Assembly (NCBI GenBank): GCA_048938005.1
Contig: JBHLMQ010000007.1
Coordinates: 1-63,364, forward strand
DNA from: Promethearchaeota archaeon
GTDB taxonomy: Archaea; Asgardarchaeota; Lokiarchaeia; Sigyniarchaeales; SOKP01
Length of the DNA: 63,364 nt
Direction of reading: 5' to 3'
How positions within the stretch are numbered: the stretch's first letter is position 1; each line of letters opens with the position of its first letter. The notes under the pieces were generated by a model, which worked only from the letters and a program-made list of their open reading frames with translations, was not told the DNA's origin and ran no database searches. Below are positions 12,440 through 61,278 of this stretch, in pieces. A program made the position numbers and the translations under genes.

Positions 12440-12515
12440 TGGTGGGCCAGGAGAGGATTGAACTCCCGACCTTCGCGGTGTAAGCGCGACGTCATAACCA
12501 CTAGACCACTGGCCC
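12440..12515 (-). tRNA. tRNA-Val(TAC), CCA encoded
   Basis: GGGCCAG acceptor stem; anticodon arm TCGCG-CTTACAC-CGCGA; GTTCAAT T-loop; ends ACCA. Confidence 0.95.
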
Positions 12516-12524
12516 TTAATTAAG

Positions 12525-12607
12525 CGCAATCGGTGGGATTTGAACCCACGCATCCGTTGGACACCGGTTTAGCAGACCGGCGCTCTACCAGGCTAAGCGA
12601 CGATTGC
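12525..12607 (-). tRNA. tRNA-Ser(GCT)
   Basis: GCAATCG/CGATTGC acceptor stem; CCGGT-CTGCTAA-ACCGG; long variable arm; G discriminator. Confidence 0.95.
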
Positions 12608-13389: not shown

Positions 13390-13494
13390 GCAGACGTAGC
13401 CTAGTTGGTAAGACGCCGGCCTTGAGATTTTTATGATCTGAGCAAGTTAGCCGGTGCGCGTAAGCGCTCGGGGGTTCGAGTCCCTCCGTCTGCG
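13390..13494 (+). tRNA. tRNA-Ser(TGA) with 22-nt intron at 37/38 (13427-13448)
   Basis: GCAGACG/CGTCTGC acceptor stem; CCGGC-CTTGAG[intron]A-GCCGG; BHB helix CTTG/CAAG; long variable arm. Confidence 0.9.
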
Positions 13495-28716: not shown

Positions 28717-29412
28717 ATGTCTAAAATTGAGATTAGAAATCATCCCAAATTCTATAATGTCTTTATTTCTGGACCCCAAGAAAAGTTAAGGCTCTATACA
28801 AAGAATTTAATTGAGGGGAAAAGAGTATATGGAGAGAAATTAATAAGACATAAAGGTACAGAATATAGAGAGTGGGATCCATTTAGAAGTAAATTAGCAG
28901 CATTGATTCTGGAAAATCCTTTAACAAATTTTTTTTCAGATAATTTCAATTGTTTGTATTTAGGAGCATCTTCTGGTACAACTATATCCCACCTTTCAGA
29001 TATCATAGATACAGGAATAATTTATGGTGTGGAATTTGCAGAAAGAAGCATGAGACAATTAATTCAAAATACTTCAAAAAGGATAAATATCATTCCTATT
29101 TTAGCAGATGCTCGCTTTCCAGAAAGTTATGCTAAATATATTTTTACGGGTATAGATTTAATTTATCAGGATGTTGCCCAACCCCAACAAGCCAATATTG
29201 CAGTTGAAAATTGTAATTATTACCTAAAGCATGATGGTATTTTAATTATAGCTATCAAATCTCAATCAATTGATAGTATTCAAAAATCTGAATATATTTA
29301 TGCACAAGAGAAGAAGATCCTAGAAAAAGCAGGATATCAAATCATAGAAAGTATAAATATCCATAAATATGCTGCTAATCACATTATGTTGATAGCTAAA
29401 AAAAGCAATTAG
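28717..29412 (+). CDS. flpA: Fibrillarin-like rRNA/tRNA 2'-O-methyltransferase
   Basis: VYGEKL, EYREWDPFRSKLAA, LYLGASSGTT, YQDVAQP. Confidence 0.96.
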   Translation: MSKIEIRNHPKFYNVFISGPQEKLRLYTKNLIEGKRVYGEKLIRHKGTEYREWDPFRSKLAALILENPLTNFFSDNFNCLYLGASSGTTISHLSDIIDTGIIYGVEFAERSMRQLIQNTSKRINIIPILADARFPESYAKYIFTGIDLIYQDVAQPQQANIAVENCNYYLKHDGILIIAIKSQSIDSIQKSEYIYAQEKKILEKAGYQIIESINIHKYAANHIMLIAKKSN

Positions 29413-30101
29413 TTAAGAAACTCTGTAATTTTTCTGTTAGATAATTCTTCCCTTATTATTCTTTTAGTTGTATCCCACGACTTCCTAGCAAAAATAGGTG
29501 GCTTTTTATTTTTTTTTACATATTCTCTCAGGAATTCTATTGTTCTAACATCAGAAGGGTATCCTGAACCAAAATTTCCATGTTTATTTTGGAGTTCTTC
29601 TATTAAGGCATCTCTTCTATCTTTAGCTATTATGGAACCTGCTGATACTATTGGATATATGTCATCAGCTTTATGTCTAGAGATTATTTTTTTGGGGGCA
29701 TAATTTAATAAACTTTTAATAGATTTTCCGAATCTTTGTTCATTTACATCAGCAGCATCTATATAGATTATATCTGGTTTTAAACTGTTAATAATATCTG
29801 CCATCTTCATTTCTTCAAGTCGATTCATTGTAATTTTTTTAATCTCTCTCGCATCAATTTCCTGAGGACTAATAACAGCGATTTTATGGGAATAACAATT
29901 ATTCATTAATATCTTGGCTAATTCACTCCTCTTTTTAGGAGATAATCTCTTTGAATCTTTGACCCCTATTTCAGATAAATAGCCTAATTTTGATTTAACA
30001 AAACATACTCCACATAAAACCATAGGACCTAAGACAGAGCCCCTTAACATATAATTCGAATTGAATTAAATTCTACCAGCCTCGTCTATCCCACAAATCA
30101 A
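29409..30101 (-). CDS. rnhB: Ribonuclease HII, interrupted by a 30-nt insert (exons 30101-30073 and 30042-29409)
   Basis: TTG ATT TGT GGG ATA GAC GAG GCT GGT AG|insert|G GGC TCT gives MICGIDEAGRGSVLGPMV; also VKDSKRL, HKADD..PIVSAGSIIAK, GSGYPSD and a C-terminal PIP-like KITEFL. Confidence 0.92.
30043..30072 (-). other. Candidate BHB-type intron in rnhB mRNA
   Basis: AATTTAATTCAATTCGAATTATATGTTAAG contains an in-frame TAA, folds into a hairpin, and is flanked by two 3-nt bulges (AG|A, AG|G) around a 4-bp UGGU/GUUA helix. Confidence 0.7.
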
Positions 30102-30114
30102 TTCTTTTTTATCC

Positions 30115-31116
30115 TCATGATTCTTGGATGAGTTCAATGAATTCTTCTTCATCATCCACTTTTTCTAAATTATTAATTTTAACAATAGGAATATTTCCTT
30201 TTTTAAATGTTTCAGGAATTTTTATATCTTTACCAATAATTAACAATGAAGTCTTTTGAAATAAATCTGCGAACATTTTTAGACATTTGAAACTCATTTC
30301 ATTGACGTTTTCTTGTTCTTCTGAAATACCAGAAAAAAGAGGATAAAATCCTTCTAACTCTCTTTTTTCAGATGGAGAGTATAAAGATAATTTGAATGGT
30401 ATTGACCCTTTCTTATACCAATATGAAGAGAGACCGATATCCTTTATTATATTTTGAACATGGGATTCAAATTCACTTAACTCTTTCTCTTCAAGGATTT
30501 TTTTATCATCAAAAACATTCTCAAGGGGCCATCCAAAAACGTTTATTTTTTTGAAAAGATCATTATTTTCTAATATCTCTAATATCTTTTCAGCCATTTT
30601 TTCAGATGGACGCATAGATTCATTTTCATATGCACACAAGGTCCTTTTCGTTACACCTAGACTTTCTGATAGTTCTTTTCTTGTTATTGAATTATTTTCT
30701 CTCAATATTTTCATTAAAGCCCCATTTAAAAATACTACTCCACCACCTCTTCTTGCTAGGATATAAGGATATCTGTCGTGAAGAATATTCTCAAATGTAT
30801 TAAGAGTAATAAAGGGCAAACCTTCTCTTATATAGATTGTGTTGTCATCTAATTTTTGATATCGATTCCTTAGTCCAATTAATAATGGCTTTGATTTAAG
30901 AATTGTAGATAAAGATTTGATATCTCGAATTATATCTGGGTTTAAATTATCAATATTAGGAAATACTTTTACACTAAATATCTGATCTTCTTTTTTAACT
31001 AAGAGATCAAAACAGAATTTGTTTTTCTTAGTGGCAAAATTTCCCAATACCAATGTTTCATAATTAGCTTTCTTTAATAGAACGTCAATTCTTTCAAGAA
31101 TCTTTTCAGTCATCAA
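30115..31116 (-). CDS. Archaeal HTH (XRE-type) transcriptional regulator with N-terminal nuclease-like fold
   Basis: CFDLLVKK..KVFPNID, ARRGGGVVFLNG, ITRKELSESLGVTKRTLCAYE. Confidence 0.8.
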   Translation of the reverse strand: MMTEKILERIDVLLKKANYETLVLGNFATKKNKFCFDLLVKKEDQIFSVKVFPNIDNLNPDIIRDIKSLSTILKSKPLLIGLRNRYQKLDDNTIYIREGLPFITLNTFENILHDRYPYILARRGGGVVFLNGALMKILRENNSITRKELSESLGVTKRTLCAYENESMRPSEKMAEKILEILENNDLFKKINVFGWPLENVFDDKKILEEKELSEFESHVQNIIKDIGLSSYWYKKGSIPFKLSLYSPSEKRELEGFYPLFSGISEEQENVNEMSFKCLKMFADLFQKTSLLIIGKDIKIPETFKKGNIPIVKINNLEKVDDEEEFIELIQES

Positions 31117-59805: not shown

Positions 59806-61278
59806 ATGAATGTTAATAAGATAGATGACAATATCTACGAAATTCCTCCTAAAACTTTAATGACACGTATTAAAGGGAATATTGAGAAATTTCAGATGCG
59901 GGTTCCGGTAAAAATTTATGCTAACAATTATATCTTGGAAAAAATTCGAGGGGACCGCACATTGGATCAAATATGTAATGTTGCGTGTTTACCCGGAATT
60001 CAAAAACATGCCGTTGCTCTTTCGGACGCTCATCAAGGATATGGTTTTTGTATTGGTGGTGTTGCTGGAACGGATGCTGAGAGTGGAATGATTTCTCCTG
60101 GTGGTGTTGGATATGATATTAACTGTGGAGTTAGGCTACTTAGGACGAATTTATTTCTCAAAGATATTAAAGGAGTATTGCCAAACCTACTAAATAAAAT
60201 ATTTAGTAATATCCCTTCAGGTTTAGGTTCAAAAGGTAAATTAAACATAAGCTATTCAGATTTAGATAAGGTCTTAAATAATGGTGTGAATTGGGCATTT
60301 GAAAAAAATTATGCTATTGAGGAAGACCTTAAACATTTAGAAGAGAATGGATGTTTAAAAGATGCTGATGCGAATTTAGTTTCACAGAGAGCAAAACAAC
60401 GTGCTATTAAACAACTTGGTTCGTTGGGAAGTGGAAATCATTTTTTAGAAATTCAAAAAGTAGATCAAATTTACAATCATGAAATTGCAAAAAAATTAGA
60501 GATCTTTGAAAAGAATCAAATCACAATTATGATTCATACAGGAAGTAGAGCTCTTGGACATCAAGTATGTACAGATTCATTGCGTAATATTGAACAAGCA
60601 ATGAAAAAATACAACATTAAAGTTCCTGATAGGGAATTAGCATGTGTACCAGCAGATACACCTGAAGCTCAGAATTATTTAAAACAAATGGCATGTGCAG
60701 CTAATTTTGGTTTTACAAACCGCCAATTAATAACTCATTGGTTGAGGGAATCTGTTCAGGATATTTTTAAAAAAGATTTAGATGCTTTAGATTTACATTT
60801 GATATATGGTGTATGCCATAATATTCTGAAAATAGAAGAACACAAAATTGATGGCAAAAAAATGAAATTAAATGTGCATAGGAAAGGTGCTACAAGAGCT
60901 TTTCCACCAGAACATCCTGATTTACCATCCAACTATAAATCCATAGGACAACCAGCATTAATCCCGGGAACGATGGGTTCTGCCTCATACCTCTGTGTAG
61001 GTAAAAAAAATGCTATGGACCTATCATTTGGTTCTACTGCTCATGGTTCTGGAAGAGTAATGTCTAGAGCTAAAGCTACAAAAAAATATTGGGGAGAACG
61101 TGTTAAAAATGATCTAAGTAAACAAGGAATCTTAGTAAAGGCTGCCTCGATGAAAGTTATTGCTGAAGAGGCTCCAGGTGCATATAAAGACATAGATCAA
61201 GTTGTTCAAGTTAGTCATGATCTTGGAATCGTTGAAAAAATAGTAAGATTAGTTCCTATAGGTGTAGTAAAGGGATAA
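59806..61278 (+). CDS. rtcB: tRNA-splicing ligase RtcB
   Basis: DAHQGYGF, GVGYDINCG, GSGNHF, HTGSR, HN, HRKGAT, HGSGR, EEAPGAYK. Confidence 0.97.
   Translation: MNVNKIDDNIYEIPPKTLMTRIKGNIEKFQMRVPVKIYANNYILEKIRGDRTLDQICNVACLPGIQKHAVALSDAHQGYGFCIGGVAGTDAESGMISPGGVGYDINCGVRLLRTNLFLKDIKGVLPNLLNKIFSNIPSGLGSKGKLNISYSDLDKVLNNGVNWAFEKNYAIEEDLKHLEENGCLKDADANLVSQRAKQRAIKQLGSLGSGNHFLEIQKVDQIYNHEIAKKLEIFEKNQITIMIHTGSRALGHQVCTDSLRNIEQAMKKYNIKVPDRELACVPADTPEAQNYLKQMACAANFGFTNRQLITHWLRESVQDIFKKDLDALDLHLIYGVCHNILKIEEHKIDGKKMKLNVHRKGATRAFPPEHPDLPSNYKSIGQPALIPGTMGSASYLCVGKKNAMDLSFGSTAHGSGRVMSRAKATKKYWGERVKNDLSKQGILVKAASMKVIAEEAPGAYKDIDQVVQVSHDLGIVEKIVRLVPIGVVKG

Follow-up and report, generated by a model that had tools for sequence, protein, structure and literature searches.

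The window analysed here, a 63,364-nt stretch of DNA from a Promethearchaeota archaeon (contig JBHLMQ010000007.1 of assembly GCA_048938005.1, the source genome, hereafter G000), carries on its minus strand the gene rnhB, encoding ribonuclease HII (RNase HII), and the coding region of this gene is split by a 30-nt insert that is very likely a bulge–helix–bulge (BHB) intron removed from the RNA by the splicing endonuclease EndA and the RNA ligase RtcB. In the mechanism that we propose, the end of exon 1 (UGGU) would pair in the pre-mRNA with GUUA near the end of the intron to give a 4-bp central helix (H) and two 3-nt bulges, flanked by an intron hairpin (h') and a weak outer exon–exon helix (h). 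A heteromeric (alpha-beta)2 EndA would then cut between the second and third base of each bulge and RtcB would ligate the exons into GGU-AGG-GGC, giving a product that regains the catalytic motif GIDEAGRG in a protein of about 221–239 aa. Comparison with related genomes makes it very probable that the insert is a genuine mRNA intron of the BHB kind; we infer that the RNA is indeed cleaved and ligated, and that EndA and RtcB carry out these steps.

The only RNase HII gene of G000, and present in a single copy, rnhB runs from TTG 30101 to 29409. Read on the minus strand from this TTG, the frame gives (L/M)ICGIDEAGRI*FNSNYMLRGSVLGPMV, in which an extra segment, I*FNSNYMLR, separates (M)ICGIDEAGR from GSVLGPMV. 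Reading through the insert yields a match to PF01351 positions 1–199 at 1e-41 with one TAA within it, that is, a full-length RNase HII match including the N-terminal catalytic Asp–Glu pair of GxDEAGRG, both residues of which lie in exon 1; exon 2 matches PF01351 at 1e-41 and TIGR00729 at 4e-57. The mechanically called open reading frame (ORF; 29409–30050, 213 aa) begins at an ATG within the insert, aligns to TIGR00729 from profile position 9 onward and is devoid of the catalytic Asp–Glu. Both the insert with its in-frame TAA, splitting GxDEAGRG, and the want of the catalytic D and E in the ORF starting at 30050 had been pointed out in a first-pass annotation of this DNA, and both stand at the positions collected in Table 1.

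Where exon 1 begins is ambiguous in G000, with in-frame starts at TTG 30101, TTG 30137, ATG 30152 and ATG 30155, which are 9, 21, 26 and 27 codons ahead of the junction codon, respectively. In some relatives a stop close upstream forces a start 9 codons ahead of the junction; in others, which have no start at that distance, the start must lie 13, 21 or about 27 codons ahead. The three upstream starts of G000 would overlap the 3' end of a 333-aa ORF (30115–31116, minus strand) by at most 41 nt, and a GAGGA motif precedes TTG 30101. Public gene calls for the rnhB clade are nearly all of 213 aa (some of 204 or 212 aa) and are named ribonuclease HII.

Table 1. Positions in the window of the rnhB exons, the proposed intron with its predicted structural elements, and the RtcB gene.
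Feature	Position	Strand	Remarks
rnhB exon 1	30073..30155	-	...ICGIDEAG(R), with the catalytic Asp-Glu; its last two bases, AG, open the Arg codon
Proposed BHB intron	30043..30072	-	30 nt; TAA at 30068-30066; ATG used by the gene caller at 30050-30048
rnhB exon 2	29409..30042	-	opens with the third base of the Arg codon and runs through GSVLGPMV... to the stop; dN/dS median 0.149
Helix H, 5' strand (UGGU)	30075..30078	-	exonic; third base of the Ala codon and the Gly codon
5' bulge (AGA)	30072..30074	-	predicted cut between 30073 and 30072
Intron hairpin h'	30049..30071	-	8 of 9 pairs, 5-nt loop
Helix H, 3' strand (GUUA)	30045..30048	-	intronic
3' bulge (AGG)	30042..30044	-	predicted cut between 30043 and 30042; AAA, ACA or AUA in most relatives
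Outer helix h, 5' strand	30079..30087	-	exon-exon; C17-G55 invariant, then a G-G mismatch; an alternative register exists
Outer helix h, 3' strand	30032..30041	-	exon-exon
RtcB RNA ligase	59968..61275	+	PF01139, 1.4e-170; about 30 kb from rnhB

Homologues are catalogued under Promethearchaeota or Candidatus Lokiarchaeota archaeon, which identifies the organism as Asgard. Relatives carry inserts at the same position. A Pfam search found rnhB in 34 of 36 same-genus genomes, each match of about 630 nt having one or two in-frame stops (TAA, TAG or TGA) or else beginning past the insert; in the other families of the order and class, all 24 matches were stop-free and measured about 600–620 nt. In a survey of the family (f1) covering 135 genomes and 13 genera, the insert turned up in eight of the genera (g1, g19, g21, g22, g23, g27, g28 and g29) and not in g18, g20, g24, g25 and g26. 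A gapped pattern search over 400 genomes of the phylum, which requires GAGGC..AG and is escaped by inserts flanked by other codons, matched once per genome in 80 genomes, all of them in the family (79 of 134 plus G000), and in none of the 266 genomes of other families; the reversed pattern, run as a control, gave no match. With three carriers that fall outside the pattern, G104 (GAA codon), G149 (Lys codon) and G021 (masked bases), the total comes to 83 genomes, all of one family and all interrupted at the same codon. Metagenome contigs with matching flanks contain the full insert in 16 of 16 cases, and the insert is therefore not an artefact of one assembly; the joined, insert-free form was seen in none of the 16, in a collection that is mainly DNA and so silent on splicing. 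Within G000, an nhmmer profile of the intron run against the whole genome recovered the intron itself (E = 1.9e-9) and no repeat of it elsewhere, the next best hit having E = 1.5, so that the insert is not a repeated or mobile element.

Three further observations concern rnhB copies and lengths among relatives. One same-genus genome has, beside its intron-bearing rnhB, a second, partial and insert-free rnhB at a contig end (G100:C7:2-427), for which contamination or a second allele could account. A second partial RNase_HII domain (model positions 1–165) is found in frames of 560–590 aa in three genomes (G003:C18:144667-145191, G017:C9:18861-19388 and G146:C1:1537-2061), and may represent a fusion paralogue. 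Finally, the rnhB loci of genera g22 and g29 (L052, L054, L058, L063, L067 and L075) give a Pfam match of 645 nt despite a 30-nt insert and must therefore contain about 15 more nt elsewhere.

The insert is untranslatable and its flanks are coding. At the 81 loci whose inserts were analysed, reading through in the exon 1 frame meets at least one stop in every case. Insert length is 30 nt at 77 loci, 29 nt at two (G023 and G066), 28 nt at one (G156) and 31 nt at one (G157), so that read-through would shift the frame in four genomes. Read-through by way of a reassigned stop was rejected, as the inserts include all three stops, TAA, TAG and TGA, and these four lengths are not multiples of three. 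No ATG, GTG or TTG lies between the last stop and exon 2 in 31 of the 81 inserts, which makes the ATG present in that of G000 incidental. On the upstream side, the exon 1 residues C, G, D, E, A and G are invariant at all 81 loci and are each written with two to four synonymous codons, purely synonymous variation of a kind that marks an exon as translated. Downstream, all 49 same-genus loci have an unbroken exon 2 frame (209–210 codons), and the ratio of nonsynonymous to synonymous substitution rates (dN/dS) of exon 2, computed for 31 pairs against G000 with dS values of 0.34–1.85, lies between 0.080 and 0.227, with a median of 0.149. Relaxed selection over the rest of the gene, which the first-pass annotation had named as a mark of a simple pseudogene, is thus not what we find, and on these sequence comparisons the insert is neither an artefact nor a pseudogene.

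The predicted splice product can be compared with alleles that lack the insert. Cutting between the second and third nucleotide of each bulge would remove 30072–30043 and leave GGU AGG GGC, that is G-R-G, in frame; owing to the repeated base on either side, cuts displaced by a base or two would yield the same product. Intron-less alleles in the family read GGN-AGR-GGN (sometimes with CGN or AAA) precisely at this junction and match the mature sequence that follows from the cutting rule. The excision of exactly 30 nt to give GGT AGG GGC, as first proposed for this locus, is thereby borne out in sequence, and the rule applied, a cut after the second bulge nucleotide, agrees with that given for cbf5 introns in PMC2738675. 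Spliceosomal-type borders were also considered and rejected, the two equivalent cuts giving AA..AA or AU..AA and not GU..AG. Codon choice around the junction differs between alleles with and without the insert: the Glu codon is GAG in 81/82 with and 22/38 without, and the Ala codon is GCU in 66/82 and 11/38, respectively, while Gly GGA occurs in 0/82 with and 17/38 without, and Arg CGN in 0/82 and 3/38. Exonic synonymous sites of the predicted BHB are thus constrained in carriers only, in counts that are descriptive, the related genomes not being independent.

In G000 the intron hairpin AUUUAAUUC/GAAUUAUAU forms eight of nine pairs, helix H is UGGU/GUUA, the bulges are AGA on the 5' side and AGG on the 3' side, and the exons pair outside as GAGGC/GGCUC (4/5) and GAC/GUC. 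All of these pairings, as well as the warning that the central helix of G000 is rich in G–U pairs, were already part of the first-pass annotation and are present in the sequence, and its suggestion that relatives be examined for inserts at the same position with covarying pairs proved productive. Two sets of sequences were used. Among 34 same-genus sequences, 94.1% of cells are paired under the BHB model, against 23–46% for registers slid by 1–3 columns, and four pairs have changed on both sides, a number reached in none of 500 shuffles. The second set comprises 76 unique sequences from eight genera, anchored at both exon ends such that no alignment is required, and was compared with 2000 shuffles. 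Pair 21-48 of helix H is formed in 75/76 sequences (UG 40, CG 13, GC 13, UA 9; shuffle mean 52.1) and pair 18-51 in 68/76 (UA 55, UG 5, AU 4, CG 3, GU 1; shuffle mean 55.3), as is the first hairpin pair, 25-47, in 72/76 (AU 62, UA 5, GC 3, UG 2; shuffle mean 56.6), and for each of these three pairs none of the 2000 shuffles was as high. The two inner pairs of helix H, with an invariant G in columns 20 and 19, are formed in 76/76 (20-49; GU 33, GC 43) and 65/76 (19-50; GU 40, GC 25), and in the hairpin U-A at pair 32-40 is replaced by C-G.

The UGGU/GUUA of G000 appears in other species as UGGU/ACCA, CGGG/CCCG or AGGG/CCUU. Four pair types at one position cannot all have come down from one ancestor, since three of the changes involve an exonic wobble base and an intron base at once. 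The bulges are 5' AGA in 71/76 and 3' AAA, ACA or AUA in 72/76 sequences. Length differences are confined to the hairpin, helix H and both bulges standing at constant distance from the exon ends, and the BHB geometry of one helix and two 3-nt bulges, present in G000, recurs with fixed spacing at 81 loci with H pairs that covary. In the hairpin loop (30058–30062, minus strand) the first three of the five bases vary across relatives and the last two are usually UC, next to the closing G (..UUCGAA..); a minority have UUAG.

Several results weigh against reading the element as a BHB. Helix H of G000 consists of one A–U and three G–U pairs, and the 71-nt region of this genome folds with a z of -1.53, 13 of 200 shuffles folding at least as well. 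Across the 76 sequences, pair 19-50 is unpaired in 11 and pair 18-51 in eight, and the outer helix h amounts to one invariant C–G pair followed by a G–G mismatch in all of them; RNAalifold favours another exon register, GGCU with GGCU/C. Constrained folding of 81 sequences with ViennaRNA places the canonical 3-4-3 fold 2.2–12.2 kcal/mol (median 6.8) above the minimum-energy fold in every one, and the mean probability of the H pairs exceeds 0.5 in 17 of 81 only, being 0.00 in G000. By this yardstick, which is our own and not a published criterion, the BHB is not the stable or favoured fold. Many minimum-energy folds retain helix H and the 3-nt 5' bulge, but with a 4-nt 3' bulge and a GGC/GCC exon helix. 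The shuffles used for covariation, moreover, ignore the relatedness of the sequences, and their counts are not probabilities. The significance of the predicted fold rests on comparison with relatives, not on the fold of G000. Measured from helix H, the cut site is identical in the canonical fold and in that with the 4-nt bulge. With its outer helix weak and its canonical fold disfavoured, the motif is therefore best called relaxed rather than a strict hBHBh'.

The same weaknesses lend some substance to the idea that the insert is removed from the RNA at the conserved hairpin by a different endonuclease or by self-cleavage, and not by EndA at a BHB. The canonical BHB is thermodynamically disfavoured in 81/81 sequences and its outer helix is poor, and what is conserved includes the hairpin and part of its loop. 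We nevertheless hold this to be improbable. The pairs that covary are those of helix H at exact BHB spacings, the intron-less junction is that which the BHB rule predicts, and cbf5 introns, which heteromeric EndA cuts, are mostly unconventional BHBs too (PMC2738675). At 28–31 nt the insert is too short to be a group I or group II intron, and no other archaeal route for removing an RNA insert of this size came up in a search of the full-text literature.

A second alternative leaves the mRNA uncut. Under translational bypassing of the kind known from gene 60 of phage T4, the ribosome would leave the message at the Arg AGA codon, skip about 30 nt and resume. A stop two codons past the take-off codon, a hairpin within the gap and, in G000, a landing triplet AGG that is also an Arg codon would all suit such an event, which would also tolerate gaps whose lengths are not multiples of three. 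Bypassing of the gene 60 type is defined by matched take-off and landing codons flanking the gap, and this match is not found here: the landing triplet (columns 52–54) is AAA in 54, ACA in nine, AUA in nine and GUA in one of the 76 sequences, an Arg-related codon occurring in 3/76. Bypassing also leaves unexplained the covariation of exon bases 18 and 21 with intron bases 51 and 48, as well as the fixed 3-nt spacings. We know of no bypassing of this type in archaea and consider it very improbable at rnhB. That the gene is simply broken or N-terminally truncated, yielding from an internal ATG a 213-aa protein without Asp–Glu or nothing functional, agrees with the public gene calls of that length and with the ATG at 30050 in G000 but is scarcely credible, given an insert kept in 83 genomes of eight genera at a dN/dS of about 0.15, an exon 1 that in this model is untranslated and yet keeps its amino acids through synonymous changes, 31 of 81 inserts that offer no start codon, and an rnhB that is single-copy in G000.

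Taking the insert as a putative BHB intron in rnhB, its history was examined on a maximum-likelihood tree of exon 2 proteins with 129 rows, 81 with insert, 39 without from the family and nine outgroup; nine loci are omitted through the anchor pattern or length filter (L003, L004, L005, L046, L107, L137, L138, L139 and L143). Intron-less alleles adjoin intron-bearing sisters in g1, g23, g27, g28 and g29. The tree needs 15 state changes, a rough number for a quick tree of a short protein, at least seven of which are forced by branches with a Shimodaira–Hasegawa-like approximate likelihood ratio test (SH-aLRT) value of at least 95; shuffled labels need 38.9 changes on average, and none of 500 shuffles was as low as 15. 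Such counts do not separate gain from loss. Given inserts that are homologous in both sequence and position, the simpler reading would be that the intron was gained once, at or close to the base of the family, and then precisely lost several times.

We then considered whether G000 has the means to process such an intron. Its genome encodes two paralogues of the EndA family (PF01974/TIGR00324) of 198 and 205 aa, 30% identical and both above the TIGR00324 cut-off; they lie in the regions C26:1453-2049 and C56:1210-1827 (loci L048 and L049). Assuming the catalytic residues to be a Tyr–His–Lys triad, alignment finds the His of the first replaced in the second, and the pair looks like a catalytic alpha and a structural beta subunit. 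Together with RtcB, this makes up a predicted host set for cutting relaxed motifs and for ligation; that RtcB lies in the same window as rnhB is probably coincidence. PMC5829648 describes Asgard EndA as an (alpha-beta)2 enzyme with an L1 loop that gives it broad specificity.

ARAGORN run with introns allowed, a poor tool for archaeal introns several of whose calls here are doubtful, reports 21 intron-bearing tRNAs among 30 in G000, and the canonical introns among them have A-rich bulges such as AGA, UAA, AAA and AUA. In the window itself, tRNA-Ser(UGA) (13390–13494, plus strand) has a 22-nt intron at the canonical position with a clean BHB and a 5' bulge AGA; ARAGORN detects it only with introns allowed, the default scan giving tRNA-Val and tRNA-Ser(GCU) at 12440–12607. 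The first-pass annotation had also proposed a genome-wide scan for other ORFs rescued by BHB excision. Such a scan of G000, for BHB-like motifs of 12–120 nt that on excision would bring together two open frames of 70 codons or more, returned 1659 candidates against 1634 for a decoy with parallel pairing and so gave no excess; it is blind to short first exons, and it therefore constitutes no evidence that other introns are absent. The 105 best-structured candidates have the appearance of ordinary gene boundaries and were rejected, as was the most striking one (C74 22086–22129), at which a normal stop is followed by a ribosome-binding site and ATG. The cbf5 gene of G000 (TruB_N) is uninterrupted, with one open frame of 342 aa outside the window (C57:75780-76121; L111, L112).

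Among known systems, the cbf5 pre-mRNA intron of Crenarchaeota (Desulfurococcales and Sulfolobales), reportedly described by Watanabe in 2002 and Yoshinari in 2006, comes closest to hand. Yokobori 2009 (PMC2738675) describes cbf5 introns as cut between the second and third bulge residues and as mostly unconventional BHBs, ties cbf5 pre-mRNA splicing to hetero-oligomeric EndA and reports lineage-specific intron loss. The rnhB intron resembles the cbf5 intron in being short, in residing in a protein-coding gene, in its relaxed BHB-like borders and in its cuts between the second and third residue, here predicted; its hosts resemble those of cbf5 introns in having a hetero-oligomeric EndA, here predicted, and in probable lineage-specific loss. 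It differs in the gene and in the phylum, Asgard, and in lying some 9–27 codons from the start inside the DEAGRG motif with a length of 28–31 nt. Moreover, cbf5 splicing was demonstrated by cDNA and in vitro cleavage, whereas that of rnhB is predicted.

Pre-tRNA introns with BHB motifs are abundant in Asgard archaea, according to bioRxiv 10.64898/2026.10.13.758758 and PMC5829648. The rnhB element shares with archaeal pre-tRNA introns the geometry of the motif, the presumed enzymes EndA and RtcB and, in G000, A-rich bulges, but differs from them in an mRNA host without a tRNA body to aid recognition, and nhmmer finds nothing else similar to it in G000 below E = 1. A BHB site cleaved by the archaeal splicing endonuclease is described in the HVO_1309 mRNA of Haloferax volcanii (PMC7714728, accessible part), a euryarchaeon with a different type of EndA, and a restored coding frame is not evident in that part of the paper. 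Like HVO_1309, rnhB would provide an mRNA substrate for archaeal splicing endonuclease, here a putative one. In eukaryotes, a short structured intron is removed from HAC1/XBP1 mRNA without the spliceosome, the endonuclease being IRE1 and the exons being joined by tRNA ligase (RtcB in animals); active protein arises only after splicing, and the regulatory role of this event is established. In rnhB, by contrast, the nuclease proposed is of the EndA/TSEN type, the stem–loop motifs differ and a regulatory role is speculative.

Neither an rnhB intron nor any Asgard mRNA intron turned up in a search of the full-text literature, a scope outside which subscription journals and supplements fall; the first-pass annotation, too, knew of no reported rnhB intron. 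A 2020 paper still gives the BHB motif as occurring 'in one mRNA' (PMC7714728), and a 2026 preprint on Asgard tRNA introns mentions protein-coding genes, in the portion of its text available, only as neighbours matching loci (bioRxiv 10.64898/2026.10.13.758758). Archaeal BHB introns in coding regions that have appeared in print thus come down to essentially one gene, crenarchaeal cbf5, and rnhB would be the second. The earlier proposal of a protein-coding BHB intron in an Asgard archaeon gains support from the conserved insert, its covariation and the purifying selection on the gene, and at its probable strength it would mean that tRNA-type splicing of mRNA is not a crenarchaeal oddity. The 83 carriers, with their clear covariation and repeated precise loss, would then also form a rich data set on the upkeep and loss of introns.

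There are consequences for annotation as well. Many public 213-aa 'ribonuclease HII' entries come without the catalytic Asp–Glu because gene callers start at the ATG inside the insert, and other genes interrupted by such introns are probably mis-called too. As for function, a regulatory tie between RNase HII expression and tRNA splicing is something that we only infer. We regard as unlikely, and put forward as a conjecture, that the intron is a working gate on RNase HII and, separately, that the at least seven precise losses came about through recombination with reverse-transcribed spliced mRNA. If the gate were true, the position of the intron, inside the catalytic motif and near the start, would mean that active RNase HII is made only from mRNA processed by EndA and RtcB. 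A genome-maintenance enzyme would then be coupled to the state of the tRNA-splicing machinery, and the closest relatives of eukaryotes would possess an archaeal counterpart of unconventional splicing of the HAC1/XBP1 type.

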